A DNA stretch of 64,000 nucleotides. Source: an uncultured Anaerolineae bacterium. GTDB lineage: Bacteria > Chloroflexota > Anaerolineae > Fen-1058. Made by a program: the position numbers and the translations under genes. Positions 6,077 to 54,663 of the stretch are shown here, piece after piece (the first letter of the stretch is position 1; every line of letters begins with the position of its first letter). The notes under the pieces were generated by a model. It was not told where the DNA came from and made no database searches. It was given only the letters and a program-made list of their open reading frames with translations. The DNA lies in the NCBI GenBank assembly GCA_964550855.1, contig CAZKBQ010000018.1, positions 3,841 through 67,840 of the forward strand. Reading direction: 5' to 3'.

Positions 6077-6156
6077 CCAATCGGCGATGTAATTACAGCT
6101 TACTGATAGTCTCTGGCGGATTCAAGCGGGAGGCCTTCTGAAACCTGACATGAACC

Positions 6157-7506: not shown

Positions 7507-7525
7507 GGGTCAATCAAGCCGACGG

Positions 7526-9064: not shown

Positions 9065-9109
9065 GACGAGCTCGCTTCGCCGGGTCTAATGAATGACGCT
9101 GATGAACGG

Positions 9110-9161: not shown

Positions 9162-9221
9162 ACGCAGCCATGCTCGTGCGGGTATTCTCACCCTCTCCGT
9201 CCATGCTGCAGCCGGCCACCC

Positions 9222-9251
9222 TTGCCACGATCCCGGTCTTGCGACTATAAT
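9222..9251 (+). promoter_or_regulatory. Candidate sigma70-type promoter for the CPBP gene
   Basis: TTGCCA (9222-9227), N18, TATAAT (9246-9251). It lies about 185 nt upstream of the CPBP start. Motif match only. Confidence 0.3.
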
Positions 9252-9435
9252 CGCCACCAGCCAAGTCGCAGTCTGGTCCGATTCTCCGCCGATTACGCCA
9301 AGATCGACCTCACTGGCCGGGCTGCTGTTTCCGCGGCTGCCGGCCATTCCCGGTATCGATCGCCGCCCTTGGCGCCGTCGGGCCGAGCTGGAACAGTCGG
9401 GAGACTGAGCACATCTCTATCATCCGGGGGGCAGG

Positions 9436-28222: not shown

Positions 28223-28321
28223 TCGAAACAGGTTTGATTGAGCCGCTGGACGCGACCCGGCTGATGATCAACCTGGCTGTGTGGTGTGAATGCCTGCCCC
28301 CGTGGTTATTCTAGCATTTAT

Positions 28322-29116
28322 TCACGCCGCGGGCGTCAGCAGCCGTTCCAGCGCGTAGGCGGTCTGCGCGGCGAAGTTCTGAATCAGGCGATTGTCGGCC
28401 GGCGGCAGAGGCGAGTGGCCGCGCCAGATATTGATCTCGCCGATGAGGCTGCGCGCCGACAAAAGCGGCACGATCAGATCGGGCCGGCCTGCTTCCGATC
28501 GGGCAGCCGGCAGCGTCACGATCACGCCCGCCGGCTGATCGGCTGCCTGCACGTTGACGCGGACCAGGCGGGCCTGGTAAAGCTGCTGCAGATGCCGGGC
28601 CAGCACTTTGGCCGCCGCCTCAGCCGTGCGCGCCATCGCCAGGCCCGCGCTGAGTTCGTACATATACAGCGCCTCGCGCTCGCGCTGCCGCGCCAGTGCC
28701 AACCCATATTGAATGCGGCCGATGACGATCAACGCCACTGCCAGAAAGATGATCAGCAGCAGCCAGCTTTCCAGCCGTCCGACGATGAAGGTGAAGAACG
28801 GCGGGATGAAGAAGAAGTTGAAGCAGAAAAACGCGATGACGGCCGCGCACGCGCCCGGCCCCGGTCCCCAGCGAGTGGTGGCCCAGCTGATCGGCACGAG
28901 ATAGACCAGCGCGATGACGCCTTCGCCCAGCGTGTCGCGGCCGATGGCAAACATGATCGCCGTGGTGGCGAGCACGCTCAAGGCGGCCCCGACGCATTCG
29001 GCGAACATCTCAATCGTAAACGTCAGTTTTGGAATCCGCACGTTGCGCCTCTTGATGCCATACAGAATCGGAACGGTTTGGTCGTCAGGCCCGCAGGCTC
29101 GCTTCGCGTCGGGCAT
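28322..29116 (-). CDS. Stand-alone KdpD-like membrane (DUF4118-type) + GAF-like domain protein without kinase or N-terminal KdpD domains
   Basis: It parallels KdpD residues ~400-650: LVYLVPISWATTRWGPGPG, FNFFFIPPFFTF (compare FDYFFVPPQLTL in KdpD), then a YMYELSAGLA... GAF-like segment. It sits between kdpC and kdpD. The start is uncertain (29116, or ATG 29008). Confidence 0.7.
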   Translation of the reverse strand: MPDAKRACGPDDQTVPILYGIKRRNVRIPKLTFTIEMFAECVGAALSVLATTAIMFAIGRDTLGEGVIALVYLVPISWATTRWGPGPGACAAVIAFFCFNFFFIPPFFTFIVGRLESWLLLIIFLAVALIVIGRIQYGLALARQREREALYMYELSAGLAMARTAEAAAKVLARHLQQLYQARLVRVNVQAADQPAGVIVTLPAARSEAGRPDLIVPLLSARSLIGEINIWRGHSPLPPADNRLIQNFAAQTAYALERLLTPAA

Positions 29117-29216
29117 TCACGTGATCGATCGGCGCGCCCGGCTGATGGGGGCAGTTGGCTGCCCGCCTAAAGCGCGCGGGCTTGACGCGATCAATTCGCA
29201 GCCTAAAGCACAGCGG

Positions 29217-29795
29217 TTAGCGCGCCGTCAGTGCATCCAGCGCCAGATTCAGCTTAAGCACGTTGACGCGCGGCTCGCCCAGCATGCCCAGGGTTCGGCC
29301 GGATGTGTTCTGATCGATCAGTGTCTGCACCACCGCGGGATCAAGCCCGCGGGCGCGCGCCACCCGATCGAGCTGGTAAGCGGCCGCGGCCGGGCTGATA
29401 TCCGGATCGAGCCCGCTGGCCGAGGCTGTGACCAGATCGACCGGGATCGGTTGAACGTGCGTTGGATCAGCCTGCTTGAGCGCCTGGATGCGAGCTTGAA
29501 CAGCTTGCAGCAGTGCCGGATTGAGCGGGCCAAGATTGGAGCCGCCGGACGAGGCCGCGTTGTACGCCAGCGGCGCGGTGGCCGAGAGCCTTCCCCAGAA
29601 ATACTTAGGATCGTCGAACGCCTGGCCGATCAACGCCGAGCCGACGACTTGCCCGCCCTTCACGATTAGACTGCCATTGGCCTGCTGCGGAAAAGCCACT
29701 TGGGCCAGGGCCGTCACCAGCACCGGATAGACGATGCCCGTGAGCAGCGTCAACAACAACAGAGAAACTAATGCGGGTCGAAGTTGAGACGACAT
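29217..29795 (-). CDS. kdpC: K+-transporting ATPase subunit C
   Basis: [44 protein letters not shown]..., [20 protein letters not shown]: typical KdpC motifs. Confidence 0.95.
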
Positions 29796-29852
29796 GTAAG
29801 CCTTTCCTTAAAAAGGCTGAACTTTTCATACTTCAGTCTTCAGCCTTGATCG

Positions 29853-31931
29853 TCAAACCAGATGCAGCGCGACCAGGATCATATCGATGAGCTTGATGCC
29901 GACGAACGGCGCGACAAGTCCGCCCAGTCCGTAAATCAACAGGTGATCGCGCAGCACCTGCGCCGCGCCGACGGGGCGATACCGTACGCCGCGCAGCGCC
30001 AGCGGGATCAAGGCCACGATGATCAGCGCGTTGAAGATCACGGCGGACAAAATGGCGCTCTGCGGCGTCGCCAGCCCCATGATGTTCAACTTACCCAACA
30101 CTGGATACGTCGTGGCAAAGGCCGCCGGGATGATGGCGAAATACTTCGCCATGTCGTTGGCGATGCTGAACGTCGTCAGCGCGCCGCGCGTCATCAACAG
30201 CTGTTTGCCGATCTCCACGACCTCGATCAACTTGGTGGGGTTGGAATCCAGATCGACCATGTTGCCCGCTTCCTTGGCGGCCTGCGTGCCCGTGTTCATT
30301 GCCACGGCCACGTCGGCCTGCGCCAGCGCAGGCGCGTCGTTGGTGCCGTCGCCCGTCATCGCCACCAGACGGCCGCCGGTCTGATACTCGCGAATCAATT
30401 TGAGCTTCGCTTCGGGCGTGGCCTGCGCCAGAAAATCATCCACGCCGGCCTCGGCCGCAATGGCCGTCGCCGTCAGCGGATTGTCGCCCGTAATCATCAC
30501 GGTCTTGATGCCCATCTGGCGCAGGTGCGCGAAGCGTTCTTTGATGCCGCCCTTCACGATGTCCTTCAGTTGAATCACGCCCAGCACCCTGGCGCCATCA
30601 GCCACGACCAGCGGCGTGCCCCCTTCCTTTGCAATGCATTCGACGCTGTGTCGCACCGTCGCCGGAAAACTTCCGCCCTGCTGCGTCACATAGGCTTCGA
30701 TCGCATCCGCCGCGCCTTTGCGGATCTGCCGCCCGTCGAGGTTGACGCCACTCATGCGTGTCTGCGCGGTGAACGGCACGAAGGTCGCGCTCAAACCGTG
30801 AATATCGCGCTCACGCAAGCGATATTGCTCTTTTGCCAGCACGACGATGCTGCGGCCTTCGGGGGTCTCATCCGACAGCGACGCGAGCTGGGCCGCATCG
30901 GCCAGCGCGTCCGGCGATGTGCCGTCGGCGGGGATGAAGGCTGTTGCTTGCCGGTTGCCCAGCGTGATGGTGCCGGTCTTGTCGAGCAGCAAGACATCGA
31001 CATCGCCCGCTGCTTCGACTGCGCGCCCCGACATCGCGATCACGTTGGCCTGGATCATGCGATCCATCCCCGCAATCCCGATCGCGCTCAGCAGCCCGCC
31101 GATCGTTGTCGGGATCAGACACACGAGCAGCGCGACCAACACCGTTACCGTGACCGGCGTACCCTGACCGGCGGCCCGCACGCTGTAAATGGAAAACGGC
31201 AGCAGCGTCACCGTCGCCAGCAGAAAGATGATCGTCAGCGCTGCCAGCAAGATGTTCAGCGCGATCTCGTTGGGCGTCTTCTGCCGCTGCGCGCCTTCGA
31301 CCAGGCCGATCATGCGATCGAGGAACGTCTCGCCGGGGTTGGCCGTGATGCGCACGATCAGCCAATCGGAGAGCACGCGCGTGCCGCCCGTCACCGCCGA
31401 TCGATCGCCGCCGCTTTCGCGGATGACGGGCGCGCTTTCGCCCGTGATCGCGCTTTCATCAACCGAGGCGGCCCCCTCGATCACTTCGCCGTCGCCGGGG
31501 ATGAAGTCGCCTGCCTCGACGAGCACCACATCGCCCTTGCGCAGCGTGCCCGCCGACACTGCAGTGTAGCTCGCGCCGTATTGCGGCTCGGCCAATTTCC
31601 TGGCGCTGATGTCGCGCCGCGCCTTGCGCAGCGTATCGGCCTGGGCTTTGCCGCGCCCCTCGGCCATCGCTTCCGCGAAGTTGGCGAACAACACGGTGAA
31701 CCACAACCACAGCGAAACGGCCAGGATAAAACCGGCCGGCGCTTCACCCTGGCCGAACAACGCCTGAATGAACAAGCCCGTGGTCAAGACGCTGCCGACC
31801 AGCACGATGAACATCACCGGATTGCGCAGCTGCACGCGCGGACTGAGTTTCTTGAAAGAGGCCACGATCGCCCGGCGCACGATGGGGCCGTCGAACAGCG
31901 GTCGGGCTTTGGCATGAGTATGAACCGTCAT
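29853..31931 (-). CDS. kdpB: K+-transporting P-type ATPase subunit B
   Basis: 692 aa. Motifs [10 protein letters not shown] (phosphorylation site), [31 protein letters not shown]. Confidence 0.97.
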
Positions 31932-32023
31932 GATGTTTCCCCTAATTCCTGGACGGTCATGCCCGAATGCTATTGTCGGGCATCCAGTCTGGCGATTGGC
32001 AGATCACGTTGATCGCGTTCTGG

Positions 32024-32048
32024 ATTCCCGCCAGAAGCACGCGGGAAT
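32024..32048. repeat. REP-like palindrome inside the unusually long kdpA-kdpB spacer
   Basis: ATTCCCGC-cagaagcac-GCGGGAAT (8-bp arms) within TGGATTCCCGCCAGAAGCACGCGGGAATGACG. This resembles the widespread GGGAATGAC / RGND-type intergenic palindromes. Confidence 0.55.
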
Positions 32049-32089
32049 GACGTTGCCCTGCGATATCGTAACTCAACCTGGATACCACT

Positions 32090-33832
32090 CTAATGCGCCA
32101 TCATCAACTGTTCCACAATCGGCCCCAGCGCCAGCGCCGGGATGAACGTCAGGGCGCCGACGAGCACCACCACGCCGATCAGCATCACGATGAACAGGGG
32201 CGTGTGGGTGGGCAATGTGCCCGGCCCGGCCGGCACAATCTTCTTGGCGGCCAGCGAACCCGCAATCGCCAGCGTCGGAATCGCCAGCCAGTAGCGGGCC
32301 AGCAGCATCGCCAGGCCGCCGACGAGGTTGTAAAACGGCGTGTTCGCGCCCAGCCCCGCAAAGGCGCTGCCATTGTTGTTGCCCATCGACGAGAAGGCAT
32401 ACAGCACTTCGCTGAAGCCGTGCGCGCCGGGGTTGTGAATCGCCACCCGGCCCGCGTCTGTCGTCACCGCCAGCGCCGTAAAGCCGAGCACAATGATGGG
32501 CGGAATCAAAATGATCAACGACGCCATCTTCATCTCGTAAGCTTCGATCTTCTTGCCCAGATATTCGGGCGTGCGGCCGACCATCAGCCCGGCCACAAAC
32601 ACGGCGATGATGGCAAACACCAACATCCCGTACAGGCCGGAGCCGACGCCGCCAAAGACCACTTCGCCCAACTGCATCAGCCACATGGCGGCGAGTCCGC
32701 CCAACGGCGTGTACGAGTCGTGCATCGAGTTGACCGATCCATTTGACGCGGCCGTCGTCGCCGTGGCCCACAGCGCCGAGTTGGCGATGCCGAAGCGCAC
32801 TTCCTTGCCTTCCATGTTGCCGCCCGGCTGCCGATCACTCGCGGCCTGATCGACGCCCAGCGTGGTGAAAGCGGGATTGCCGTTGTATTCGGCGCTCACC
32901 GACAGCGCCAGCAGCGCCACAAAGATGGCCGTCATCGCCGCCAGCACCGCCCAACCCTGCCGCGTGTCCTTCACCATCTTGCCGAAGGTGTAGCACAGCG
33001 CTGCCGGAATCAGTAGAATTGATAACATCTCAAGGAAGTTCGAAATTGGCGTCGGATTTTCAAACGGATGCGAAGAATTGGTGTTGAAGAAGCCGCCGCC
33101 GTTGGTGCCCAGTTGTTTGATGGCGATCTGCGAAGCCGCCGGGCCCATCGGCAACAGCTGCGTCGTCACGACCGCGCCGTCGGCGCCGCGGGCGGCCTGC
33201 AGCAGCGATACCGGTTGATAAGCGCTGAAGTTTTGAATGACGCCTTGCGACACTAGGGCGATTGCCAGGACACACGACAGCGGCAGCAGAATATACAAGG
33301 TGGTGCGGATCAGATCGACCCAGAAGTTGCCAATCGTCTGCGCAGATTTGCGGCGCAGCCCCCGGATCAAGGCGACCAGCACTGCCATGCCCGTGGCCGC
33401 CGAAACGAAGTTCTGCACCGTCAAACCCAGCATCTGCGTGAGGTAACTCAGGGTGGTTTCGCCGCCATAGTTCTGCCAGTTGGTGTTGCTGGTGAAACTC
33501 ACGGCGGTGTTGAAGGCCAGATCGGGCGAGACCGGCCCCAGCCCCTGCGGATTCAACGGCAGCGCCTGCTGAACGCGCTGCAAGACGTACACGCCGATCA
33601 GGCCGAGCAGGTTGAAGATCAGTAGCGCCACGGCATACGTTTGCCAGTTCATCTCCACCTGGGGGCGGATGCCGGCGGCCCGATAGATCAGTCGCTCGAT
33701 CGGGCCGAAGACGCGATCCAGCAGCGTGGGCTCGCCCTCGTACACCCGCGCCATGTATGATCCGAGCGGCTTGACCAGCGCCAGCAGCACGATCAGATAC
33801 AGCATGATTTGCAGCAAGCCGTTGCCCGTCAT
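32090..33832 (-). CDS. kdpA: K+-transporting ATPase subunit A
   Basis: 580 aa polytopic protein. [31 protein letters not shown]..., [18 protein letters not shown] motifs. Confidence 0.97.
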
Positions 33833-34010: not shown

Positions 34011-34173
34011 CGTTTTCTCCTGAAAGGTCTGAAGGTGATCTTAGCCGGAACGGCGTCAAGCCGGTGACAAGGCTGAGGCGGGCGAGGTCAAGAAAACATC
34101 AAGGTGGGTATAATTCAGCGTGCCTGCCCGGCCCCCTCGCCGGGACACTCGACAGCCAGGGAGATCCCATCTC

Positions 34174-36225
34174 ATGAAGAACGCTTACGAAATCGCCGAG
34201 CCGGATTTTGATCTGAGCCCGCACACCGGCATGACGCGCCGGCACTACATCGATCTTGCCAAATATCTGCTGACTCGCGCGTTTACCCACGTCCCGTCGC
34301 CGGACACCCCGTTGTCATTTCCCGTCGTGCCGGGCAAGACCTATCCGCAGCCGAATGATCCGCCGTGGCGACATCGGTCGCTGGAATTCGAGGCGCTGGA
34401 ACGGACGCTGACGCTGGCCGGCCCGCTGATGCACGTGGAACCTGAAGCCAGCATCAACGGCTTCAACCTGCGTGAGTATTACTGCCGCCACCTGTACAAC
34501 GCCCTCACGCCCGGCCACGCCAACTCGCTGCCCTTGCCGGAAGATTTGCCCGACGCGACGTATCAGTTTACGTGCGAGTTTGGCGGGCTGTTCAAGACGC
34601 TGCTGCTGCTACCGGATGTCCTGTGGCCGCACTTCACGCCGCAGCAGAAAGACGAGATGGCGGTTACGATCTCGAAGTGGGCCCACCACCGCACCACGCA
34701 GAACAACTGGCGCATCTTCAACATCGTCACGCTGTCGTTCTTGAAGAAGCACGGCTACGCCATCGACGACGACCTGTTGAAGAGTCATCTCCTGTGGGTG
34801 GCCTCATATCATTCGGGGGACGGCTGGTACCTGGAGCAGACGTACAACTATTACACCATCAGCCTCTTCGTCGTGTACGGCACGATCTGGAACCGGACGT
34901 TCGGCGACGAACACTATCCCGACATCGCCGCCGCCATCGAAAAATCCGCGCAGGAACTGATGAAGACCTACACCCGCTTCTTTGCCCGCGACGGCTACAT
35001 CAACATGTGGGCGCGCAGCATCTGTTATCGCACGTGGATTTCGGGCGGCTTCCCCATCTCGTTCATGCTGAAAAGCGCACCCCCGATCGATCCCGGCTGG
35101 GCCCGACGGCTGTGCTCCGGCTCGCTGCTGCAGTTTGTCACACGCGAGGAATTTTACGAGAACGACATCCCCAGTCTGGGCTTCTACGGACACCGCGAAT
35201 TTGTGCTGCAAAACTACAGCTGTCCGGCCAGTCCGTTTCTGATGTTCCTGCCGTTCGTGTGTCTGGCCCTGCCCGCCGATTCGCCTTTCTGGACGGCGCG
35301 CGAAAACGATGGCCTGTGGGAAACGCTCGGCGCTCGCTCCGAGCGGGTGATCCTCGACAAGCCGGGGCTGACGCTGGTCAATCACGGCACGACCGGCACA
35401 TCAGAGATCGTCCCCGGCAAGACCTACTACGCTGATCAAAACTATTCCAAGCTGGCATTCAATACGCATTTCCCGTGGGAAGATCACGATCCGCGCGGCG
35501 GCACGGCGATGGAGTACAGTTTTCGCAGCCTCGATCCGCGCGACCTGCGCGGCGACGACATCAACTTCTATCTCACCGGTCACGCGCTGCGCAACGATGC
35601 CGATCGGCATGCCTATACCACTTCGCAGAGCATGCTCTACAACGGCGTGCGCGGCGACGTGCTGTACCGGCAGGCCATCATGCGCCAGCCGCCCAACAAC
35701 GGCGTCGGCTACATCATCGATCTGGCTGAGATCACCATTCCCGGCGGCGTCATCCGCGTCGATCGATCCCGCCTGGCCTTTGAGCACGAACTGACGCTGG
35801 GGCACTTCGGCCTGCCGCACCTCGGCGGTCAACCGGCCAGCGTACGTCGCTTTGAAGATGACACGCGAAAAGCGCTCACCGCTGCCATTCCCGGCCGGCA
35901 AGTGGCGCTGATCGCCTATCGCGGCTGGGACGGCATCGACAGCCGTGTGCATGTCGGCTGCAACGCCGAAGCAGATGAAAGCACCATACTGTACGCTCAC
36001 AAGAAACGCACGACGAAGAATCCGGCCATGGAGTTGATGATCGTCGTCATGCGGCACAAGACCGATGACGCGCCCTGGAGCGAAGAGGAGTTGTCGCCCA
36101 TCAAGGCGATCGAGCTCAGGGACATCACGCCGAGCTATTCACCGTTGGGGGCCACGATTACGCTGTGGAACGATCAGACGTACGTGATCGATTTCGTGGA
36201 CATCGACGGCGAGCGGGCGTGTTGA
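34174..36225 (+). CDS. DUF2264-like protein (family assignment tentative)
   Basis: ATG 34174 (MKNAYEIAEPDFDLSPHTGMTRRHYIDLAKYLL) with an AGGGAG SD; the ORF track starts at 34120. 683 aa, soluble. The N-terminal pattern resembles DUF2264 as I remember it. Confidence 0.65.
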   Translation: MKNAYEIAEPDFDLSPHTGMTRRHYIDLAKYLLTRAFTHVPSPDTPLSFPVVPGKTYPQPNDPPWRHRSLEFEALERTLTLAGPLMHVEPEASINGFNLREYYCRHLYNALTPGHANSLPLPEDLPDATYQFTCEFGGLFKTLLLLPDVLWPHFTPQQKDEMAVTISKWAHHRTTQNNWRIFNIVTLSFLKKHGYAIDDDLLKSHLLWVASYHSGDGWYLEQTYNYYTISLFVVYGTIWNRTFGDEHYPDIAAAIEKSAQELMKTYTRFFARDGYINMWARSICYRTWISGGFPISFMLKSAPPIDPGWARRLCSGSLLQFVTREEFYENDIPSLGFYGHREFVLQNYSCPASPFLMFLPFVCLALPADSPFWTARENDGLWETLGARSERVILDKPGLTLVNHGTTGTSEIVPGKTYYADQNYSKLAFNTHFPWEDHDPRGGTAMEYSFRSLDPRDLRGDDINFYLTGHALRNDADRHAYTTSQSMLYNGVRGDVLYRQAIMRQPPNNGVGYIIDLAEITIPGGVIRVDRSRLAFEHELTLGHFGLPHLGGQPASVRRFEDDTRKALTAAIPGRQVALIAYRGWDGIDSRVHVGCNAEADESTILYAHKKRTTKNPAMELMIVVMRHKTDDAPWSEEELSPIKAIELRDITPSYSPLGATITLWNDQTYVIDFVDIDGERAC

Positions 36226-36509: not shown

Positions 36510-39500
36510 CTACTCCGTCACGATCAACACCAGCGGCGGCACTTCACCCGCGTGATCAGGATTGTAGTAGTCATACGCCGCGCTGGCCGGCGTCTGCACG
36601 CTGAGCGGATACTTGGCCTTCAGGCGATAACTGAAGTCCAACGCTTCTGTACCGCTCAAGTTCGTGACGTAGACGATGACCTGCCGCCCGGTGAGTTCAT
36701 ACCGTTCGATGCGGGCACCCGCATAATCGGCCGGTAGATCGCGGTAGTGCGCCACCAGCCGATCGAGGTCTTCGCTCTGCACGGCGAAGCCCGGCGGCAC
36801 ACCCAGATCGATCAGCGCGGAATCGACGCGTGCGTTCGGATCGTTCAGGCGCACATCGACGTTCACCGTCACATTGTCGTTCATCTGCAACTGCGTGCGA
36901 TCGTACTTCACACCGATCGACATCGCCTCGCCTCGATCGCTGCCGCGCGACACGGCACTCCACGGCAGATAGTAGTTGGCGGCGATCTGGTACATCAAAT
37001 TGCCTTCGCCCTGCGCCGCGATCTCGATCGTGTGATCGCTTCCCGGCGTGAGGTCGTTGAACGTCACGGCCTGCACCACGTCGAAGTTTTCCGGCGTCAC
37101 CTTCACGCTGCGCGCGGCGCTGCCGTCGAGTTTGATCGCGATCGCGGCGTTGACGTTCTCGCTGCCGACGCGCAGGCTTTGCAGCAGCGCCTTCAGCGCG
37201 AGGATCGTCGTCTGCGTGGTGTACCACGTGCCGGACGCATCCTTCGCTTTGATCAACGCCGTCAGGCCGCCGTTCGCCACGTCGGGCTGCGACTCGGCGC
37301 GCAGCAGGGCCAGCGTCACCAGCGCTGTCGTCTCGATGCTGCCCGTCTCGCCCTGACTGCCCATGAACGTGGCGATGTTGCTGGGCCACGTCACGGCGTT
37401 GTCCTTCTTCACGCTCATTTCAGCCAGACGATTCAACACTTCTTGTGTATCCGCACTCAACGTGAATGGCTTATCAGGGCCACTGGCCGATCGATCAGCC
37501 GCAACGAGCGCGTTCGCCACCAGCGCGACGACATACGCATCGTCGGCTTCACCGAGATGTTCGCGCACGTAAGCCAGGCCACGCTGCGCCCGTGGGTCGT
37601 TGCCGAAACCCGCATCCATCAAACTCCACACGATGTAAGCCGTCACGGGCAGACGATTGTTCTTCAGATTACTCCACGAACTTTCATGCACGAGGCCGCG
37701 ATCGTTTTCCCACGAACCGTCCGACTGCTGCTGGCTCAACAACCATTCGGCGGCGCGCTGGATCAACGCCGGATCGACATCGTGCACGCGGCGCATGTCG
37801 CTGAACTCTTGCAAGCCGTAGGCCGTCAACATCCGATCGGCTGGTGCACGCCCGAAGAGTGAGAAGCCGCCGCCGGGCACTTCAAACGTGGTCAAGCGTT
37901 GATAGCCCAGGTTGATGTATTCCTCGGCCTTCAGCTGCACTTCGGGCGAAGCCTGCTTGGTCTGCTGCAGATAATCGAGCACCAACGCATTCGGATAAGC
38001 CGACGACGATGTTTGCTCGAAGCAGCCGTTGGGCATGCGCAGGATGCTGTCCAGTCCTTCCACCACCTGGCTCACGATGCCGGGATAAATCTTGACGGTG
38101 ATCGCCTGCGTGCCCGGAATCGCTTGCGCGGGGATGCTGACCGTGCGCTGGATCGTGGCGTTGCTCTCCAACCGATCGGACTGCGCCGCCGACTGCGCTT
38201 TGCCGTTGGGCAGCACGCGCACCATCTTCTGGATCGCATCCGACAACTGTGAGCCATACGCGGTGACTTTGAACGGCTGCAGGCCGAACAATTTGGCGCG
38301 CACGCGGAAGTACACCACGCTCACGTCGTTGCCCGCAATCTCGATCGCTTTGCTCGGCTCGTCGAGCAGCTCGTACCAATCGGCTTGAGCGAGTTCCAAC
38401 CGCACCGTCTGCTTGTCGGGCAGATAGTTAAACACGCCGATCGGCACGGCGATCTCATCGCCCACCGTCAAGGCCACCGGCAGATCGAGATCGACGAAGA
38501 AATCCTGGAAGACGCGCAGGCCGCTCGTCGTGCTACCGATGCGCCCGTCACGCGTGGAAGCGAGCGCCGTCACGCGCCACGTGGTGATGCTGTCCGCAAT
38601 CGGCACATCGACCTTGAGCTGGCCGTTTTGATCCGTCACCGCATTGGGCAGCCACAACATCGTTTCCGGGAAGTATTGACGCAGGCGCGGTTCTTCCGCG
38701 GCCGAACCTTGCTTCGCACTGGCCTGTCGTTCCATCGCTTGCTGTGGCGCAGCAGTAGGCTGCGCCGCCGGCGCCATCATCAGCGGCGAAGGCGTTGTCG
38801 CTGCGGCGCAGCCCGACGAAACAATCAGCGCGAACACCAACCCCAACAGCAGCACTTGCGTGCCACAGCCGCCGGTGATCTCGCTGAACAGCAGCATGAA
38901 ATACATCACGACCATCAGGGCCAGACCGATCAACGCAAGTAGTTCAAAATCGAAACTGAAGCTGAACGATCGAGCCTGCACGAAGCCGATGAGGATCAAC
39001 AGACCCACGTTAGCCGCCATCAACCCGATGGCGCGGCGGAAGGCTTTGTCTTTGCGCTTGGCCGCTAACGAGATCATGACGAGGAATCCGATGACCAGCG
39101 TCGCGCCGAGGCCAATGAGAATCAGCCAGTACAGTTCGTACATTCGCGAGCCGCTCATCATGAACAAGCCGATGATCAGGAAGATCACCAGCAGGAAACT
39201 GAAGCCCAGCCGCTTGCGGCGATGCAGCGACACGCCGCCGTACCACACCACCGCGCCCGATATGATGACGGACAAAACGCTCAGCAAGTTGCTCAGGCCG
39301 CCGAAGTACGCGCCCTGCCGCATGCGCAAATCGCGGCTCACTTCATCGTGCGTGTTTGAATTCAGGCTTAAATTAGCCGGTGCAGAGACGGCTTGCGCCA
39401 GTGCAGCGCGCGCCGCCACATCCTGCGCGTTCCGCAACGCGATTTCTTTGGCAGGCTCGGCCATCGAGCGCGTCAAACTGAAGCCGTGCAGATCGTATTT

Positions 39501-41318
39501 GGGTTGGAGGAGTTCCTGTTCCAGCAAGAAGTACAATCGCGCAAAACCGGGATCCTGCTCGGCCAGCGCAAAGACCGATTCGTCGACGATGGCGAGACCC
39601 AACGCGGCTTGCGTGCCTGCACCCTGTTGATCTTTAACGGCAATATCGAGCTGCGCCTGATCGCCGGGGCGGTATACATCCTTATCGGGATTCAGCGCCA
39701 CGCCGAGTTCAGTCGCATCGTCGACGAGGATCAAGCGCGTGTCACGCACGATCTGCCCGTCGCGCGTGATGCGATAAGCGTGAACTTCCAGCGTGCCGTC
39801 GAGATCGGGCGTCAGATCGATCGCCACTTGCGCGCGGCCTTCCGTAAACGGCACGGCGCGCGTGCTGGCCGTCTGCCCGTTGCGCACGAGGTCGAGATAG
39901 AACGTGCCCTGCTCGCCGGTGCTGAACACCGTCACGCTCATCGTCTCCCCCACGCGATAGATCGGTTTATCCGTGCGCAGCAAGATGCTGTCGCTCGTAG
40001 GCCGAGTGTCAAAGGAAAAGTCGCTAGCGGCTCGTGCCCCATTAGCGGCCTGAGCTTCAATGCGCACGGATTGCGGTGTTTTCTTCGGCGTGACGCGCAC
40101 CTCACCCAAGCCATATGCATCGGTGTGAACTTGCTGCGCTGGACCAGCGCCAGCGGCGTACACGGTAAGATCAGTTGCCAACGGCGTGCCGTCGGGCGCA
40201 CTGGTCAACACGTAGATCACATTCTCGAAACCCCACTGCAATTTGCCGCCTTCGGGAATGGCGCGAATAACGATGGGGCTGGCCGTGACGGGCAGCGAGA
40301 GATTCGTCACTTCGGTGTGCTGCGCCTGATCGATCACGCTGGCTTGCACGTAGAAGCGGCCCTGCCCGTTTTCGAGATCGCTGCCCGCGATGTACTTGGG
40401 CAGATCGAACGAGAATTCAAAATTGCCATCGGCGGTCGTTTCGCCAGTGAGCGTGATCACGCTGGTGCGTTCCACATCAAACGTGTAACCTTCGATCTTC
40501 ACTTGACCCTGACTGACAGGCTTGCCGAAGAAGTAATTGGCCCTCAGCGTGCCGCGCACCGTCTCGCCGGGCTGGTAATACGTCCGATCGGTCTTCAGAT
40601 CGATCGCGAACTTGGGCAGCACGTAATACTTCACTTCCACAGTCTTCTCGGACAATGTGTCACCCAATTGCGCCGTGATCTTGTACAGGCCGGTGTTCAC
40701 TTCGTTGGCGAGTTGGAAATCCGTGGAGGCCACGCCGAAGTCCGACGCGGTCAACGTCTGGCGAAAGACGCGATTGCCCTTGCCGTCGGCGATGCTGATC
40801 TCGATCGGCTGTTGGGCCGCCGCCGAATGATCGGCTGTGCTGAGCGCCAGCGCGCGCAGATGGATCGTCTGGCCGGGTTGATAGATCGGCTTGTCGGTGG
40901 TCAGCAGGATGCGATAATCGCGCTTGATCACGATCGGCGGTTTCGTTTGATGCGTGCCGCGATCGGATCGCGTTTCGACAATCAACTGTTGATTGGGTGC
41001 GGCGTCTTTCGGCACAATGAAAGAAACGTTGAGATTGCCATCCCGATCGGTTCTGCCCGAAAACACCGGCACGGCCTCTTGATCAGGCGCCTGCAGCGAG
41101 ACCGTCACAGCGGCATCCGGCAGCGGTTGTGAAGAGTTGTGATCGCGCACGAGGACGCGAAAGGCGGCGGGCGCGCCGGGGGCAAATCGGCTTTCGCCGA
41201 CGACGAGGGTATCGGGCGGCGCGGCAGCGGTGGGCAAAGCTTCAAAATACAACGTGACGAGGGCGAGCAGGATTGCCGCAGCGATCAGCAATCCCTTGAA
41301 CATCTTCGAGCGGGACAT
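36510..41318 (-). CDS. Alpha-2-macroglobulin family thioester protein with an internal six-helix membrane block
   Basis: ATG 41318 (MSRSKMFKGLLIAAAILLALV, AGGAGG SD); the ORF track starts at 41450. N-terminal MG-type beta domains, an A2M motif PRLRQYFPETMLWLP...DSITTWRV (nt 38661-38690 encode PRLRQYFPET), and an intact thioester motif GCFEQ (CFEQ at nt 38013-38024). Six hydrophobic helices are encoded at ~38808-39308. Confidence 0.9.
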   Translation of the reverse strand: MSRSKMFKGLLIAAAILLALVTLYFEALPTAAAPPDTLVVGESRFAPGAPAAFRVLVRDHNSSQPLPDAAVTVSLQAPDQEAVPVFSGRTDRDGNLNVSFIVPKDAAPNQQLIVETRSDRGTHQTKPPIVIKRDYRILLTTDKPIYQPGQTIHLRALALSTADHSAAAQQPIEISIADGKGNRVFRQTLTASDFGVASTDFQLANEVNTGLYKITAQLGDTLSEKTVEVKYYVLPKFAIDLKTDRTYYQPGETVRGTLRANYFFGKPVSQGQVKIEGYTFDVERTSVITLTGETTADGNFEFSFDLPKYIAGSDLENGQGRFYVQASVIDQAQHTEVTNLSLPVTASPIVIRAIPEGGKLQWGFENVIYVLTSAPDGTPLATDLTVYAAGAGPAQQVHTDAYGLGEVRVTPKKTPQSVRIEAQAANGARAASDFSFDTRPTSDSILLRTDKPIYRVGETMSVTVFSTGEQGTFYLDLVRNGQTASTRAVPFTEGRAQVAIDLTPDLDGTLEVHAYRITRDGQIVRDTRLILVDDATELGVALNPDKDVYRPGDQAQLDIAVKDQQGAGTQAALGLAIVDESVFALAEQDPGFARLYFLLEQELLQPKYDLHGFSLTRSMAEPAKEIALRNAQDVAARAALAQAVSAPANLSLNSNTHDEVSRDLRMRQGAYFGGLSNLLSVLSVIISGAVVWYGGVSLHRRKRLGFSFLLVIFLIIGLFMMSGSRMYELYWLILIGLGATLVIGFLVMISLAAKRKDKAFRRAIGLMAANVGLLILIGFVQARSFSFSFDFELLALIGLALMVVMYFMLLFSEITGGCGTQVLLLGLVFALIVSSGCAAATTPSPLMMAPAAQPTAAPQQAMERQASAKQGSAAEEPRLRQYFPETMLWLPNAVTDQNGQLKVDVPIADSITTWRVTALASTRDGRIGSTTSGLRVFQDFFVDLDLPVALTVGDEIAVPIGVFNYLPDKQTVRLELAQADWYELLDEPSKAIEIAGNDVSVVYFRVRAKLFGLQPFKVTAYGSQLSDAIQKMVRVLPNGKAQSAAQSDRLESNATIQRTVSIPAQAIPGTQAITVKIYPGIVSQVVEGLDSILRMPNGCFEQTSSSAYPNALVLDYLQQTKQASPEVQLKAEEYINLGYQRLTTFEVPGGGFSLFGRAPADRMLTAYGLQEFSDMRRVHDVDPALIQRAAEWLLSQQQSDGSWENDRGLVHESSWSNLKNNRLPVTAYIVWSLMDAGFGNDPRAQRGLAYVREHLGEADDAYVVALVANALVAADRSASGPDKPFTLSADTQEVLNRLAEMSVKKDNAVTWPSNIATFMGSQGETGSIETTALVTLALLRAESQPDVANGGLTALIKAKDASGTWYTTQTTILALKALLQSLRVGSENVNAAIAIKLDGSAARSVKVTPENFDVVQAVTFNDLTPGSDHTIEIAAQGEGNLMYQIAANYYLPWSAVSRGSDRGEAMSIGVKYDRTQLQMNDNVTVNVDVRLNDPNARVDSALIDLGVPPGFAVQSEDLDRLVAHYRDLPADYAGARIERYELTGRQVIVYVTNLSGTEALDFSYRLKAKYPLSVQTPASAAYDYYNPDHAGEVPPLVLIVTE

Positions 41319-41401
41319 GGCGCTTCCTCCTTGTTCAATGTGCGGGCGATCTGCTTTTACGACGCAGGCCGCTTGAGCAAGGTTCCGCAAAGCCACGTAA
41401 C

Positions 41402-41493
41402 CCGCCATCGAATGAATTCGATGGCGGATAAGAGAAATGTGTTGAAACACATTTTAAGGTGTTTTCGCTATCAGCGGCGAATGAATTCGCCGC
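41402..41493. repeat. Cluster of three perfect palindromes, each with a GA centre, in the divergent intergenic region
   Basis: CCGCCATCGAAT-GA-ATTCGATGGCGG (41402-41427), AAATGTGTT-GA-AACACATTT (41435-41454) and GCGGCGAAT-GA-ATTCGCCGC (41474-41493). The first and third share the core CGAATGAATTCG, also present at 18881-18892. Confidence 0.7.
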
Positions 41494-41838
41494 GCCGGTC
41501 GGGCGCGCCCGGCCCGACATCGACCGTCACCCTCGCCCACGCGGTCACGGTGACGACCGTCAACCCGCAATTGATCAGCCACACCGCCGTCATCGCCAGA
41601 GAATCGATCGGGCTGTTGGAGCGCCGCGCAACGATCATCGTCAACGGGCACACAGCCTGCGGGCCGTCGATCAGGAAATGATCGGCGGCATAGCGATAAA
41701 GTGCAGCCCGTTAGTCCCGGTTTTGTCTATGTTCAATGACAACCCCGTATCAATCCACCGAGTGGCCCTAATGTGCCATTGTCCAGCCGTCATGACGATG
41801 GCACAGTAGGGGACAGCCTGAAGTTGGCGGAGGCCAAG

Positions 41839-43644
41839 ATGCGCATCAAATATCTACTCATACTTTTTGTCGGGCCGCTCATTGGCCTGATGGTTGCCTC
41901 GACGCTCCACCCCGCCGGCGCTACTCCGCAAGCTGCGCGCCCGCGCCGCGTAAATATCCCTTACTTTTCCGGCGCAGTGAACGAAAGCCAGTCGGCCATC
42001 TTCTGGTTCGGCGTGAACGAATGGTATCAACACATTCCCGGCCGCAACTACGTGGATGTGCGTATCGCCTATTCGCCGGCGGGCCTGTATTGGCGGGCGA
42101 CGGGCATCGATTACTACCTGTGGTACAAGGCAAACGCGACGCCGGGCGACGATCTCACGCGCTACGATGCGCTGGCGCTCTACATCGATACCGGACACGA
42201 TCGTGCCGCTTCACCCCAGCCCGATGATTACTTCTTCCTTGTCGGCCTGCACGGCGATACCGGGCCTGATACGCCGCAGTACCGGCGGCAGGCGCGCGGC
42301 ACCGGTTCCGGTTGGAACACAAGTTGGACTGGAACGTGGTCCGATTATTCCGGCTGGCAGTGGAGCGATAACGGGCCAAACGACAACAGCGGCAACATCG
42401 ATTATGGCTGGGTCATGGGCGGCACGATCCCGTGGTCGACGTTTGGCCTATCGGGTCCGCCGGCTAATGGCACGGTCTGGGGCTTCGGCGTACTGCAATA
42501 CGATCAAGATCAATCCATCGGCGCGCCGCTGCAAGAGACCTGGCCCGAGACATTCAGCCCCAATCAACCCAACACCTGGGGCGAATTGCATTTTGGCCCG
42601 GCGAGTTACACGCCGCAGCCGGCTGTGCCGCGCGGCAGCACCCTGATCCGTGCGGCCACCCCGCTCGATAACACGGTGGAAGATGCGTGGATGGGCGGTG
42701 GCGGCTGGTGCCAGGCCGGGCACGAAGGACACAGCGAAGACAATCACGGCAACGACGAGCAGCTGTTTGTCGGCTCCGAGATTCAGCCCACGCATTTTCC
42801 CTGCTACAATAAATCGTACCTGCGCTTCTCATTGGCGAGCGTGCCCGCGAACAAAGTCATCATCTCCGCCACGCTCACGCTGCACCACTGGGGCAACGCC
42901 AATCCCGACATGCACACCGATTCCTACGTGTGGCTCTTCAGCGTGACCGATCCGTGGAATGAGCTGACCATTCACTGGAATAATGCACCGCTGGCTCAGG
43001 AGAATTTCTCCATGCAGCGCATTCCGCAAGTGTCGGTCTTTCCGGGCTGGCCGGGCATCCCCTACACCTGGGAGGCGACGCAAGCCGTCGCCGAAGCGTA
43101 TGCCAGCGGGCAGCCGGTGAGCTTCGCGATCTACGATTCGACCACCGGCCAGGACTCGAGCAAATACTTCACCGCCTCCGAATCCGGCCTCTACGACGAT
43201 CCCTCGTACTGGAATTGGAATATCGCGAGCCGCCCTCGCCTTGATATTGTGTGGGGTGACGCCGTAGCGACCTTGAACAAGCGCGCCGCGCCAACCAGCG
43301 TGGCGCAGGCCGATCGGATCACCTATACCCTCAGCCTGCTCGGCGCCGGGCAAACGCTGGCGCTCACCGATACATTGCCTGCGGCGTTGAGTCATCCCTC
43401 GACGCTGACGGCGACGTTCGGAACGCCGCAATACAACACCGCGACGCGACAACTCACCTGGAGCGCCGCGCCCGCCGTCGGCCAGCCTGTAACGATCACG
43501 TATGCCGTAACCGCCACCGCACACGGCCCGCTGGCGATCGGCAACACGGCGACGCTCAGCATTCCCGGCAGTCCACCGAGCACCGCCACAGCCTGGGTCA
43601 TCGTGGACGGCCATGCAATGTGGCTGCCGTTGATCAGATGGTAA
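41839..43644 (+). CDS. Secreted multidomain protein (CBM9/DOMON-like N-terminal region, DNRLRE-like middle, DUF11-like C-terminal repeat; assignments tentative)
   Basis: ATG 41839 (MRIKYLLILFVGPLIGLMVASTL, signal-like) with a GGCGGAGG SD. Middle region NKSYLRFSLASVPANKVIISATLTLHHWG. C-terminus ITYTLSLLGAGQTLALTDTLP...VTITYAVTA. Confidence 0.7.
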   Translation: MRIKYLLILFVGPLIGLMVASTLHPAGATPQAARPRRVNIPYFSGAVNESQSAIFWFGVNEWYQHIPGRNYVDVRIAYSPAGLYWRATGIDYYLWYKANATPGDDLTRYDALALYIDTGHDRAASPQPDDYFFLVGLHGDTGPDTPQYRRQARGTGSGWNTSWTGTWSDYSGWQWSDNGPNDNSGNIDYGWVMGGTIPWSTFGLSGPPANGTVWGFGVLQYDQDQSIGAPLQETWPETFSPNQPNTWGELHFGPASYTPQPAVPRGSTLIRAATPLDNTVEDAWMGGGGWCQAGHEGHSEDNHGNDEQLFVGSEIQPTHFPCYNKSYLRFSLASVPANKVIISATLTLHHWGNANPDMHTDSYVWLFSVTDPWNELTIHWNNAPLAQENFSMQRIPQVSVFPGWPGIPYTWEATQAVAEAYASGQPVSFAIYDSTTGQDSSKYFTASESGLYDDPSYWNWNIASRPRLDIVWGDAVATLNKRAAPTSVAQADRITYTLSLLGAGQTLALTDTLPAALSHPSTLTATFGTPQYNTATRQLTWSAAPAVGQPVTITYAVTATAHGPLAIGNTATLSIPGSPPSTATAWVIVDGHAMWLPLIRW

Positions 43645-44338: not shown

Positions 44339-47300
44339 CTACCACTTGCCCTGCGTGCAGACCTTGCCGTACAGCTTGGCCTGCGCCGAGACTTTGCCGT
44401 TGCGCAGCAGCCACTCCGGCCCGCCACTGATGGTGGGCTGCAATCCTCCCTTGCTGGGATCAAACGTGATCGGCCCGAGTTCGCCCATGGGTGTGGCAAC
44501 CAAGCCGCAGTCGTCGAACTTGATGTTCAAGCCCACGCCGCCGACGCCGCCAAACACCGCCTTGCCTTCCACGCCGATCTCGGAACCGGGCGGCTCCAGT
44601 CCGCCGTTGTCCACGCCCACGTTCACGCCCACGCCAAAACCCACCTCGCCGCAGAATGATGCACCCTCGGACGTGATGCAGGTCTGCACGCCGCCGCCGA
44701 TGCCAGCGTAAGCCGAGACGCCGATGCAGAACAGCCCCAGCGGGTCGCGCAGATTGATCGGGTCATTGCCAACATACACGTACAGGTTGGCCTGCTGCCC
44801 GCCGAAGAAGATCGGATCGCGCGCCGTCCAGCGGCCCGCTGCCGGATCGTAATCGCGGAAGCCGAAGCGCACTAGGCCGGTGGCCGCATCGCTCAGGCCG
44901 CCCGCAAAACCGATCGGCAGATCGAAGCCCGGCGCGCTGTCGTTGACGACGTTGCCGAAGCTGTCATACTCGATCGCTTTCACCACCTGCCCGGCCGCAT
45001 CGGCCACTACGCGCGGCGAACCCACTTGATCGGTGGCGATGGTATAGCGCGCCCCGTTGCGATCCATCGCAAAGATCAGCCCATTGTCGTCATAGTAAAA
45101 CACGCTGAGCTGACCGCCCGGGCTGCGCACCGCCGATAGCTGGAACGGATTGTTCGGATTGCCATACAGATACTGCGTCGTCCCGTTCACATCCGATCGG
45201 CCCACGCGGCGATTGAGCGCATCGTACGCATACGTGATCGTCTGCGCGCCCACCGTCGCGCTGATCAGCTCGCCGCGCGCGCTGTAGCGGAACGTATCGC
45301 TGCCGCGCTGCCGCAGGTAGCCGTCCACGTCGAATTGATAACTCACGCCGCCCAACGCCGTCAAGCGATCTTGCGTGTCATACGTCGCCGTGATGATCGG
45401 CCCGGCGTTGAGCTGCTTCGACAACCGGTTGCCGTTGAGGTCATAGGTGTATGCCTCGCTGACCGCGCCGTCGCGCGCCACCTGTATCAGCCGTCCATCG
45501 GCGTCATACGTGTACGTGAAAACGTGCGTGCTGCCCGCCGTCTCGGTCTTGCTTGAGATGCGGCCGACGTTATCGTAGCTCAGCTGCATCTGATAGACCG
45601 GCTGACCCGCCGCCGTGTGCGTGCGGCTGATCACGCGCGCCAGTGTGTCATAGGCCAGCGTCGTCGTCAGCACGTTGTCGCGCAGCAGGCTGGCCGTGCG
45701 GCCGGGGCCGTTGCGCGTGATGGTGTACGGGCCATAGCTCGTCAACAGGCCATCGGCGTCGTAGCCCAGCGTCAGCGTGACGTTATCCAACTGCCAGCCC
45801 GTCAGCAGGAAGCGATTGTTGTACGTGTAGGTGAACACACCCTGCGCCGCGCCCGACCACGCCGCGCCCGTGACGAAGCTGCCCTGATAGCTCAGTCCGA
45901 TCGACTGCGCGGGGCCGCTGGTCGGGGTGCGCGTCAACGTCGTCGCCCGATCGGTTGGATCGGCATAGCCGAATTGAATGGCCGCTTCGGGATAAGTGTA
46001 ACCACTAACACGCCCGCTGCTGTCGTAGCTGCGCGTCACCGCGCGGCCGCCCGGCAGCGTGGCGCCCGCCAGTGAGTGATCCGCGTTGTGCGCGAACAGA
46101 TATGCGGCGTTGCCCGGCGGCGTGTAGCCGGCAGCCTGATTGAGCGCGTCGTAGCCCAGCAGATGCGTTGAGCCATCGGGCATGACGATGTGCGTGCGGT
46201 TGCCGCTGCCGTCGTAGTCAAAGCCCAGCGTGCGGCTGCTGGGCAGCGTCACGGTGATCAAGCGCCCGACGTTGTCGTAAGCGTAAACGATCTGATCACC
46301 GGAAGCCGCCGTGCGCGCGCTCAACTGCTGCGCGGTGTCATACGCATAGCTCCAGCGTTGATTGCCCTGCGCCGATTGGCTGAGCTGGCCCGACGCGTTG
46401 TACGTGTAGGTGATGGGTGCCTGTCCCGGCGCCAGCGTCGTGCTGACGACGCGCCCCCACAGGTCGAGCTGCGCCACGCTGCGTTGACCGGCGGGCGTCG
46501 TCGTGGTGATCAGGCGATTGGCCGTCGTGAACGTGATGACTGTCGTCGCGCCGTTCTTGCCCAGCCGATCGACCACGCGCTGCACGCTGAACGGATCATC
46601 GGGGATGCCCAGTATCACCGCGCGCGAGTAAGTCTGCGTCGCCGTGATGCCGCCCGGCAGCGTCAGCGTCACCGTCTGCGGCAGCGAAGCCAGCATCCCC
46701 CAGCGCGGATCGGGCATCTCGATGCGCTCGATGGTGGACCCATCCGCGAACAGCGTCAACTGTGAACCGTCGGGCCGCAGATATGATTCGGTGCGCGCGC
46801 CGCTTGGTTCGGTCCGCGCGCGCAGCACCGTGCCGTTGCCCGCGTCGCGCACTTCGTACGTGGTGGTGCGGCTCAACGGCGATTGCACGTCCACCCGGTA
46901 GCCGTCGGCCAATTTCGTGCGCGTGAGCGTCGTCACGCCCTGCGCCGCGTTTTCGTCGCGGATCAGATAGCCGTCGGCGTCGTAGGTAAACTTCGATACG
47001 CCGCCGCGCGGATCGATCAGCTGCGTCAGCAGACCGGTCGAAGTGGTGGTCAACGTGATCGCCTGCCCGCTGTCGTAAGACACCGAGGAGAGATAGCCGT
47101 TGGCGTCGAGCGCCAGGTGCGTGGTCTGGCCGCCGGGCGCAACGATGCCGATCGGGTGGCCGTTGCCGTCGCGCTGGATCGTCGTCGTATTGCTGAAGGC
47201 ATCGGCGATCGTGATCAATCGTCCGCTCGCGTCGTAACCAAATTGCAGCTGCAGCGTGCCCGTGATCGGATCGACGGTGCGCAGATGCCGCCCGGTGAGG

Positions 47301-54503: not shown

Positions 54504-54663
54504 GCTGAATCTTCCTCCGTTTGAGTCGTGCATTTACCAAACGCATCGACCGCGTGTTTCGTTCCTGAAAAAGCGTTAGAGGCGAGTTACAAACAGGTTA
54601 CGCCGATCGCCGTGACATCCCGTCCGGCGGATTGAATCCGAGTGCGGCTCAGTGTGACGGCTT

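Follow-up and report, generated by a model that had tools for sequence, protein, structure and literature searches.

An A2M-like thioester protein of Anaerolineae with a predicted six-helix membrane block at the bait-region position

Thioester proteins and the gene in the window

A2M/complement-type proteins are usually studied as soluble or peripherally anchored molecules. In bacteria, the thioester class of alpha-2-macroglobulins is represented by ECAM, the YfhM protein of E. coli, and a role in protecting the envelope from proteases has been proposed for it (PMC3328433). How the trigger works has been shown experimentally for human A2M by Harwood et al.: R732, Y734 and the F735-PET stretch form a plug that sits in a channel, F224-V225-L226 of the MG2-MG3 linker form part of the roof of that channel, and the loss of bait continuity lets the plug retract (PMC9352918). 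In furin-cut complement proteins such as C3, connectivity N-terminal to the ANA domain is dispensable (PMC9352918). Here we compare with these systems a gene lying in a 64,000-nucleotide stretch of an uncultured Anaerolineae bacterium (contig CAZKBQ010000018.1, positions 3,841 to 67,840, of assembly GCA_964550855.1), the whole of which is called the window below. The gene encodes an A2M/TEP-like thioester protein in which a block of six predicted transmembrane (TM) helices occupies the place where A2M has its bait and C3 its ANA domain.

The open reading frame (ORF) is continuous, without interruption, over 36510..41450 on the minus strand, and comparison with homologues puts the start of translation at the ATG at 41318, so that the protein begins MSRSKMFKG. 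Kyte-Doolittle hydropathy in 19-residue windows places an N-terminal peak at aa 3-33, around the signal anchor listed in Table 1. That anchor has no lipobox, no obvious AXA cleavage site follows it in the window protein or its homologues, and the next conserved stretch on homologue comparison is ...YYADLP..SQHETIVLGQ. Pfam finds MG2 (E = 3e-37), MG3 (E = 1.8e-8), a weak MG4 (E = 3e-10), A2M_BRD at aa 447-585 (E = 4.6e-20), A2M at aa 886-976 (E = 1.1e-22) and TED, as TED_complement, at aa 1082-1378 (E = 3.9e-45). It assigns no domain to aa 586-885, and it finds no ANA, C345C or other complement-specific module in the window protein. Hydropathy, Pfam and the translation together bear out a preliminary description of this DNA in naming an N-terminal signal or anchor, MG-type domains and an intact GCFEQ; the motif is at aa 1098, and the coordinates given there, 38013-38024, were a trivial slip for 38027-38013.

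Table 1. Positions of the features discussed, in window coordinates unless a locus is named
Feature	Residues	Nucleotides	Strand	Basis and remarks
Gene of the thioester A2M/TEP-like protein	1602 aa	36510..41318	(-)	ORF translation and Pfam; stop codon included
N-terminal signal anchor, GLLIAAAILLALVTLYF	9-25	41244..41294	(-)	Hydropathy peak; MSRSKMFK ahead; kept across the family
MG2-MG3 linker YVLPKF, putative roof of the alpha'NT channel	232-237	40608..40625	(-)	Motif position; [HYR]Y[VT]LPKF across 120 homologues
First LNK helix, putative floor of the alpha'NT channel	592-604	39507..39545	(-)	PGFA[KR]LYF[LM]LEQE conserved; role per PMC9352918
Conserved soluble helices ahead of the membrane block (predicted)	626-670	39309..39443	(-)	AlphaFold2 helices at insert residues 23-42 and 53-97; conserved columns
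Six transmembrane helices (predicted)	671-837	38808..39308	(-)	Hydropathy, AlphaFold2, homologue conservation, loop charges
Lipobox-like V-S-S-G-C at the outer end of TM6	833-837	38808..38822	(-)	Cys837 codon 38808-38810; invariant in the clade
Disordered Ala/Pro/Gln-rich linker, probable bait	838-876	38691..38807	(-)	pLDDT ~50; position; variability
alpha'NT plug, PRLRQYFPETMLW (putative)	877-889	38652..38690	(-)	Nearly invariant; includes LRQYFPET (aa 879)
Thioester motif G-C-F-E-Q	1098-1102	38013..38027	(-)	Cys1099 codon TGC; inside the Pfam TED domain
A2M_recep, C-terminal receptor-binding/MG8-type domain	1500-1590	36549..36821	(-)	Pfam PF07677, E 1e-9
TGA codons at the thioester Cys position in related loci		L043:9669-9671, L050:4753-4755, L054:6727-6729, L055:9528-9530, L061:6702-6704, L064:9558-9560, L065:4102-4104, L068:9582-9584, L069:9147-9149, L071:9576-9578, L077:4518-4520, L079:7130-7132

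A search of 5.8 billion proteins returned 1180 matches at E<=1e-10, and the best 120 were analysed; they are 1425-1704 aa long with identity down to ~50%, and CFEQ is present in every one. The motif together with the TED domain predicts formation of the thioester between Cys1099 and Gln1102. Other motifs in the window protein are HGFS at aa 611 and DSITTWRV at aa 909. There are three cysteines in all, C818 in the TM5-6 loop on the cytoplasmic side, C837, and the thioester C1099. The best PDB matches by sequence are CD109 (1e-70), human A2M (3e-62) and TEP1 (6e-60), with E. coli YfhM reaching just 3.5e-17. Judged from its sequence, the window protein is a member of the A2M/TEP/complement superfamily, as it carries every defining feature that a sequence can test, and its mode of action is most likely closest to that of an A2M-type inhibitor.

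The membrane block and its setting

Hydropathy shows six peaks over aa 671-843 (nt 39308-38790) with maxima of 1.97-2.77. AlphaFold2, given an alignment of 36 homologues of the insert, predicts helices at aa 656-700, 704-720, 727-755, 758-783, 789-814 and 820-841, then disorder, with a mean predicted local distance difference test (pLDDT) score of 70.8 that stands at 85-91 over TM1-4 and 60-68 over TM5-6. The six strongly hydrophobic helices first reported at aa 671-837 are thereby supported from hydropathy, from the homologues, and from the structure prediction that had been suggested as a check, which gives six consecutive helices at the block. Exactly six peaks are found at the same place in 108 of the 120 best homologues, far more than chance would give. 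A one-genome-per-species scan found 152 relatives, 80 of which are the loci counted here (L-numbers), and about 70 of those 80 also have exactly six. Ahead of the block, alignment and model give an AAxAxLA helix (AAQASLA), an FSLxxNSH motif (FSLxANSH) and then a long helix that runs on into TM1. In most of the family the TM2-TM3 extracellular loop has an extra conserved amphipathic segment (WPLG...W..(S/T)PLDRL...), which is absent from the clade of the window protein.

The loops assigned to the cytoplasm in the window protein read HRRKR, AKRKDKAFRR and SEITGGCG. Across the 108 six-helix homologues the Lys plus Arg count per loop is 3.2 for TM1-2, 2.6 for TM3-4 and 2.25 for TM5-6, each of these loops being ~10-12 residues long, and it is 1.4 for TM2-3 (24 residues) and 0.9 for TM4-5, both of which are net acidic; read from the charges, this is the positive-inside pattern of an N-out/C-out block. 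The number of inserted helices varies, with two in L053, P0218, P0244 and P0261, four in P0026, P0199 and P0262, and eight in P0042, P0161 and P0258, and on inspection it is always even (2, 4, 6 or 8) and in no case odd. Odd counts of 5 or 7 peaks were considered and rejected as threshold artefacts on inspection. The even-only counts are the strongest internal evidence that both flanks are outside. From these counts and the positive-inside pattern we infer that both halves of the protein are extracytoplasmic, which is where the preliminary description had put them on the strength of an even helix count. The even-only variation would also fit whole hairpins being gained and lost under a topological constraint.

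The block joins no known family. Pfam gives no match to it on the whole protein and nothing consistent over the 36 inserts, NCBIfam has no match for it, and the best Foldseek match of the insert model to a PDB fold has E ~1 and a TM-score <=0.27. A known membrane domain, whether channel, transporter or receptor, was rejected as its source because none of the three tools gives anything consistent.

The LNK helix precedes the insert and the alpha'NT motif R-x-Y-F-P-E-T follows it. The PDB alignments come in two stretches flanking it and resume at aa 873-878 on PRLRQYFPETMLW, whose counterparts are ...VRKYFPETW in human A2M and ...VRKHFPETW in CD109, so an initial placement of the insert at the bait-region position, ahead of an R..FPETW-type motif, is upheld. 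A further proposal, that a membrane hairpin bundle had replaced the bait, fails, as a disordered and hypervariable linker, aa 838-876, is still found directly before the plug, at the place of the bait in human A2M and CD109. In relatives the post-TM6 linker is 26-76 aa long with a median of 61, the window protein having 39 aa; it is rich in A (22%), G (11%), P (10%), E (9%) and M (8%), and on the homologue alignment it is the least conserved and most length-variable part of the protein. Because the position, disorder and hypervariability of this linker are the properties of an A2M bait, the bait does not appear to have been replaced, and sequence and model together suggest that the hairpins were inserted N-terminal to a bait that has been retained. 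The post-TM6 linkers are also unusually Met-rich, at 7.8%.

The window protein has all three of the channel elements (YVLPKF, the LNK helix and LRQYFPET), and its family conserves them. Relatives without TM helices, namely P0270 (1556 aa) and P0252 (1845 aa), keep the helix as FSLxANSY, continue with a charged soluble helical segment, and then have the same plug; their relatives P0275-P0394 are also TM-less and carry such a segment. With a 334-aa fragment of P0270 as the query, the close relatives that carry labels are Gemmataceae, Pirellulales, Planctomycetes and Armatimonadota. This helical insert occupies the place of the C3 ANA domain, and the hydrophobic hairpins look, in the available sample, like a Chloroflexota-specific elaboration of it.

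The block is kept in ~95% of ~200 homologues, in one frame, which settles a question raised at the outset, whether the insert is conserved or relatives have two separate genes. Among the listed species genomes, 79 of 80 are labelled Chloroflexota and one is unclassified; the carriers comprise Anaerolineae/Anaerolineales, Thermoflexales, Ardenticatenales, Bellilinea, Ornatilinea, Ca. Leptovillus, Ca. Aquidulcis and the cultured Longilinea arvoryzae KOME-1. Among 1.84 billion representatives, a profile made from the insert only matches 302 proteins (95 of them at E<=1e-10), or ~300 clusters at 50% identity, and all the matches inspected are A2M-type proteins or contig fragments of them, with no stand-alone TM block among them. 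Databases annotate the family only as "YfaS / MG2 domain-containing / alpha-2-macroglobulin family". On these comparisons the block appears to be a conserved feature of a sizeable, apparently Chloroflexota-restricted family.

L078 might be cited for an artefact of assembly or frameshift, or for two genes having recently fused, as its gene halves lie in different frames (5248-7929 and 7566-10250) and the break falls in the linker just past TM6. It is the lone case, and a frameshift or sequencing error is a more probable cause than a natural split; the frame is single and uninterrupted in the window and in ~200 independent assemblies, and both halves align to the same A2M/TEP PDB chains, so we give such an explanation practically no credence. 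The preliminary description had offered the fusion of two independent genes as one origin of the protein, and this finds no support either, since the insert splits one A2M body and the TM-less relatives have a soluble helical segment at that place. It had named no described example, and we agree: the architecture was not found in the literature searched, in Pfam, in NCBIfam or among PDB folds. That literature also contained no description of TM-containing bacterial A2Ms or of A2Ms in Anaerolineae, and a polytopic insert in the bait segment is covered by no family model or paper that we found.

Trigger, anchor and Cys837

As to what the block is for, we lean towards a cell-surface thioester protease trap, with the bait and plug held at the membrane by the bundle. 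In such a trap the protein would be attached twice to the cytoplasmic membrane, on its outer face, once by the N-terminal signal anchor and once by the even-numbered hairpin bundle. The chain would pass from the LNK region along the long helix into TM1, cross the membrane six times and exit after TM6, and past that point the ~40-aa hypervariable linker, which would be the real bait, would lead to the LRQYFPET plug, threaded through the MG2-MG3-LNK channel. The bundle, unable to slip through the channel, would hold the plug where it is, a role equivalent to that of the rest of the A2M bait loop or of the C3 ANA domain. A protease cut in the membrane-proximal linker would then free the plug, the channel would collapse, the thioester would be exposed, and the cutting protease would be captured covalently at the cell surface. 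Protease trapping and the stopper role of the bundle are suggested by analogy, and a conserved trigger with the bundle as stopper is argued from the conservation of the three channel elements taken with the human A2M mechanism (PMC9352918).

Two points weigh against a trap of this kind. An N-terminal anchor is already present, and anchoring alone would leave 2-8 extra helices unaccounted for. Also, the 80 loci offer no conserved gene neighbours that would give functional context. The first point feeds the main rival to a passive stopper, which is a signalling or sensing role, where the bundle would be a transducer relaying the conformational change that follows bait cleavage through TM1 and TM6 to the cytoplasm and thereby reporting protease attack, or where, in a variant, membrane damage or tension would itself trigger the thioester. 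Multiple helices are kept despite the anchor, TM1 is continuous with a long extracellular helix in the AlphaFold2 model, and cytoplasmic loop motifs are conserved (LxRxKxLGRS after TM1 and AxRRKDxxLGW after TM3; PLAFLLRxAGF in TM5 is conserved as well). A sensor, however, would be one with no cytoplasmic domain, the loops being only ~10 aa, with a helix number that varies from 2 to 8, with no conserved polar or charged residues within the helices on the homologue alignment, with no conserved neighbour gene as a partner, and with no fold likeness to a known channel, transporter or receptor. We consider the sensor and its variant, taken jointly, to be unlikely.

Another possibility is that the protein is not a protease inhibitor, and is instead a complement-like tagging or adhesion factor whose thioester attaches to foreign or neighbouring surfaces while the bundle merely retains it on the cell. 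In its favour, the sequence is matched best by TEP1, CD109 and C3-type proteins and not by E. coli YfhM, and there is no pbpC partner of the kind that bacterial A2Ms typically have. The hypervariable, unstructured, bait-like linker is nevertheless a hallmark of the inhibitor branch, and no ANA, C345C or other complement-specific module is present, so that we rate tagging as less likely again than sensing.

The protease-trap reading has a second layer at the outer end of TM6, where an SSGC was first noted for its resemblance to a lipoprotein signal. The motif is present, with Cys837 encoded at nt 38810-38808. In a neighbour-joining tree the window protein is placed in a clade of ~20-24 sequences, Thermoflexales entries included, and TM6 ends in every clade member with h-h-[ASG][GA]-C-[AGS][PAGS]-A-A. 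Median identity within the clade over aa 665-876 is 30%, with a minimum of 18%, and over that range 3 of 212 columns are invariant in 20 sequences, these being Q668, F672 and C837. The window lipobox, ALIV-S-S-G-C, is canonical at positions -1 and -2 and has Ser at -3; those of its clade relatives read L-V-G-C, A-V-G-C, S-A-G-C and A-S-G-C, and elsewhere a similar L-G-G-C is found in L036. In P0218 (1492 aa, two helices) the last inserted helix forms an internal lipobox, RRHR-IFMAIFIIGATSSFMIVGC|SPTPP, and the N-terminus is a textbook lipoprotein signal, ...LLSLIIFIIAIGC|TPP (...IIFIIAIGC|TPP). The wider lineage gives the comparison set: 26 classical N-terminal lipoprotein signals are predicted in 1.06 Mb, 1 in the window and 25 in related loci, and many of them are followed by an Ala/Pro/Thr-rich stretch, as Cys837 is. 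In the window, the 566-aa protein encoded at 52833-54533 (-) has a ...SIGLLAAC|QAAQ signal and three N_BRCA1_IG Ig-like domains, and we take it as an indication that the organism produces lipoproteins. A basal group (L043, L050, L052, L057, L058, L066, L076 and L079) has G-N-P-x-x-Y-x-x-P-x-x-x-L-[TA]-G-C-[AGS] ~25 residues past TM6, so its Cys is not adjacent to the helix.

From these sequences, lipidation of Cys837 with a diacylglyceryl group in the window clade is plausible, though we would put it at best on a level with its negation. We are more doubtful that TM6 serves as an internal type II signal peptide, with Lgt lipidating Cys837 after polytopic insertion and LspA cutting before it, and about as doubtful that the protein is cleaved at Cys837 into two chains. 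Were such a cut made, the N-chain would be held by seven helices and the C-chain by lipid, giving a two-chain thioester protein convergent with the beta and alpha chains of C3. The lipid anchor would take over the ANA-like stopper role, and a single cut in the 39-aa tether would free the plug and fire the thioester. A cut at Cys837 would be compatible with the native state because connectivity N-terminal of the stopper is dispensable (PMC9352918). If this is true, a polytopic protein would for the first time be described as processed at an internal lipobox, and an A2M-family trap would have a trigger coupled to the membrane; use of the internal lipobox would extend the rules of lipoprotein biogenesis.

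Several facts count against a lipid at Cys837. Most of the family lacks this Cys, and for that reason lipidation is not the general reason for the insert. The residue at -3 in the window protein is Ser and not Leu, Val or Ile. The preceding TM5-6 loop, SEITGGCGTQ, has no Lys or Arg, and the motif is internal, not N-terminal with a charged n-region; some relatives do have Lys or Arg in a TM5-6-type loop, for example the RRHR of P0218. The literature searched offered no precedent for an internal lipobox.

The Ser at -3, the uncharged loop and the missing precedent would equally suit a Cys837 that is not lipidated, with TM6 an uncleaved ordinary helix and the Cys dimerising the protein at the membrane surface through an intermolecular disulfide, or serving some other role. 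Human A2M dimers are disulfide-linked, and in an ectodomain that is otherwise Cys-free, bar the thioester Cys, a lone conserved Cys would be available for an interchain bond. An intramolecular disulfide in the ectodomain was rejected, as the protein has three Cys only. What speaks against an unlipidated Cys837 is that genuine N-terminal lipoproteins of this lineage show a context like [ASG][GA]-C-[AGS][PA]-A-A and its Ala/Pro/Thr-rich stretch, and that a canonical L-[VTA]-G-C recurs in separate clades, in P0218 alongside an N-terminal lipobox of the same form. We judge an unlipidated Cys837 of this sort improbable.

Relatives, gene surroundings and known systems compared

Twelve of the 80 related loci have an in-frame TGA in place of the thioester Cys codon (G-TGA-F-E-Q). 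Past it (...LRMPFG-TGA-FEQTTS...) the frame stays open for ~478 aa to the normal C-terminus; TGA elsewhere in the same loci is an ordinary stop. Common to all 12 is a hairpin starting 3 nt past the TGA, with a lower stem GARCA/UGUUC, a 6-bp upper stem carrying a GGY triloop (GUC in one locus) ~21 nt downstream, and one covarying pair. Threading finds 10.7 of the 11 pairs in the TGA loci and 5.5 in 66 Cys loci. L063, which encodes Cys (TGC) but falls inside the TGA clade, is the exception in that it keeps 9 of the 11 hairpin pairs, and it looks like a recent conversion of selenocysteine (Sec) to Cys. The TGA-type proteins also carry the 6-TM insert, and gene callers shorten them to ~1140-1260 aa, many such lengths being found among the representatives. 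Rfam, run on four TGA loci, matched no family. The TGA and the hairpin, which resembles a selenocysteine insertion sequence (SECIS), together look as selenocysteine encoded with a bacterial SECIS would, and point to a selenoester in place of the thioester. The literature searched held no report of Sec in A2M/TEP, and the selenoester, if real, would be a chemistry not described there for the superfamily. The window gene has TGC at the thioester Cys and no hairpin.

On its 3' side the A2M gene is convergent with a gene for a DUF2264 protein at 34120-36225 (+), and on its 5' side it is divergent from a gene for a secreted CBM96 and DUF11 protein at 41773-43644 (+); neither is conserved beside homologues. 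Conserved operon partners are lacking in the 80 loci, the best neighbour family reaching 8 of 80, with housekeeping functions among the neighbours (EEP nuclease, nrdD/nrdG and others). The pbpC gene is not beside the window A2M gene and is not a conserved neighbour in the 80 loci. Farther out in the window, 44339-50218 (-) encodes a 1959-aa protein with the full teneurin-like Pfam set (TTR_TEN1-4, FN-plug, NHL, YD-shell and RHS repeats), and 25520-33832 (-) holds a kdp potassium-uptake cluster consisting of the KdpD sensor kinase (900 aa), KdpC, KdpB and KdpA. A separate 264-aa ORF at 28322-29116 has only the DUF4118 membrane domain typical of KdpD.

Chloroflexota are monoderm, being reported to lack an outer membrane, and the family shows how bacteria of that build may mount such a defence at their surface. 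It also amounts to a natural experiment on the trigger, in which a membrane anchor would serve as the stopper in place of the loop or ANA domain of other members. The cultured carrier Longilinea arvoryzae KOME-1 makes the family experimentally accessible.

Of the known systems, E. coli YfhM (ECAM) and Salmonella A2M are likewise large monomeric MG-domain proteins with a CxEQ thioester, a TED and a bait region, and ECAM too is tethered at the outer face of the cytoplasmic membrane (PMC3328433). ECAM, however, has an N-terminal lipobox as its sole anchor and no internal membrane segment, whereas the window protein has a signal anchor and a 6-TM bundle; the ECAM gene adjoins pbpC, which is not nearby here; and the similarity in sequence is weak (3.5e-17 versus 1e-70 for CD109). 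Because neither a lipobox as the sole anchor nor a pbpC neighbour is found, the window protein does not belong to the YfhM/ECAM class. Human CD109 is the best PDB match, with an alignment that resumes at alpha'NT, and is similarly a membrane-attached monomeric member of the A2M family with a bait and a thioester, but it is attached by a C-terminal glycosylphosphatidylinositol (GPI) anchor and not by helices in the bait segment, and it is eukaryotic, glycosylated and disulfide-rich, against the three Cys of the window protein.

Complement C3, C4 and C5 also have an extra helical module between LNK and alpha'NT, which there is ANA, and would share the plug-in-channel trigger (PMC9352918). Their ANA is removed on activation, and their precursor is cut there, giving beta and alpha chains that together form MG6 (PMC9352918). 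ANA, a four-helix domain with disulfide bonds, is soluble and is set free as an anaphylatoxin, whereas the module here is a predicted membrane-embedded bundle; processing in complement is by furin, whereas any processing here would be by signal peptidase II at the lipobox; and C345C is missing here. Human A2M, A2ML1 and PZP have an unstructured hypervariable bait immediately before ...R-x-Y-F-P-E-T-W, a thioester, and a receptor-binding-type C-terminal domain, as does the window protein; human A2M reads FVLPKF where the window protein reads YVLPKF, and the LNK helix is conserved in both. These human proteins differ in being soluble, in being tetrameric or dimeric through disulfides, and in having a bait loop that is continuous, with no membrane passage. 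The TM-less bacterial relatives, such as P0270 and P0252, are alike in overall build and have the FSLxANSY pre-insert helix, the R-Q-[WF]-F-P-E-T plug and GCFEQ; they differ in that a charged, soluble helical segment takes the site of the hydrophobic hairpins of the Chloroflexota proteins.

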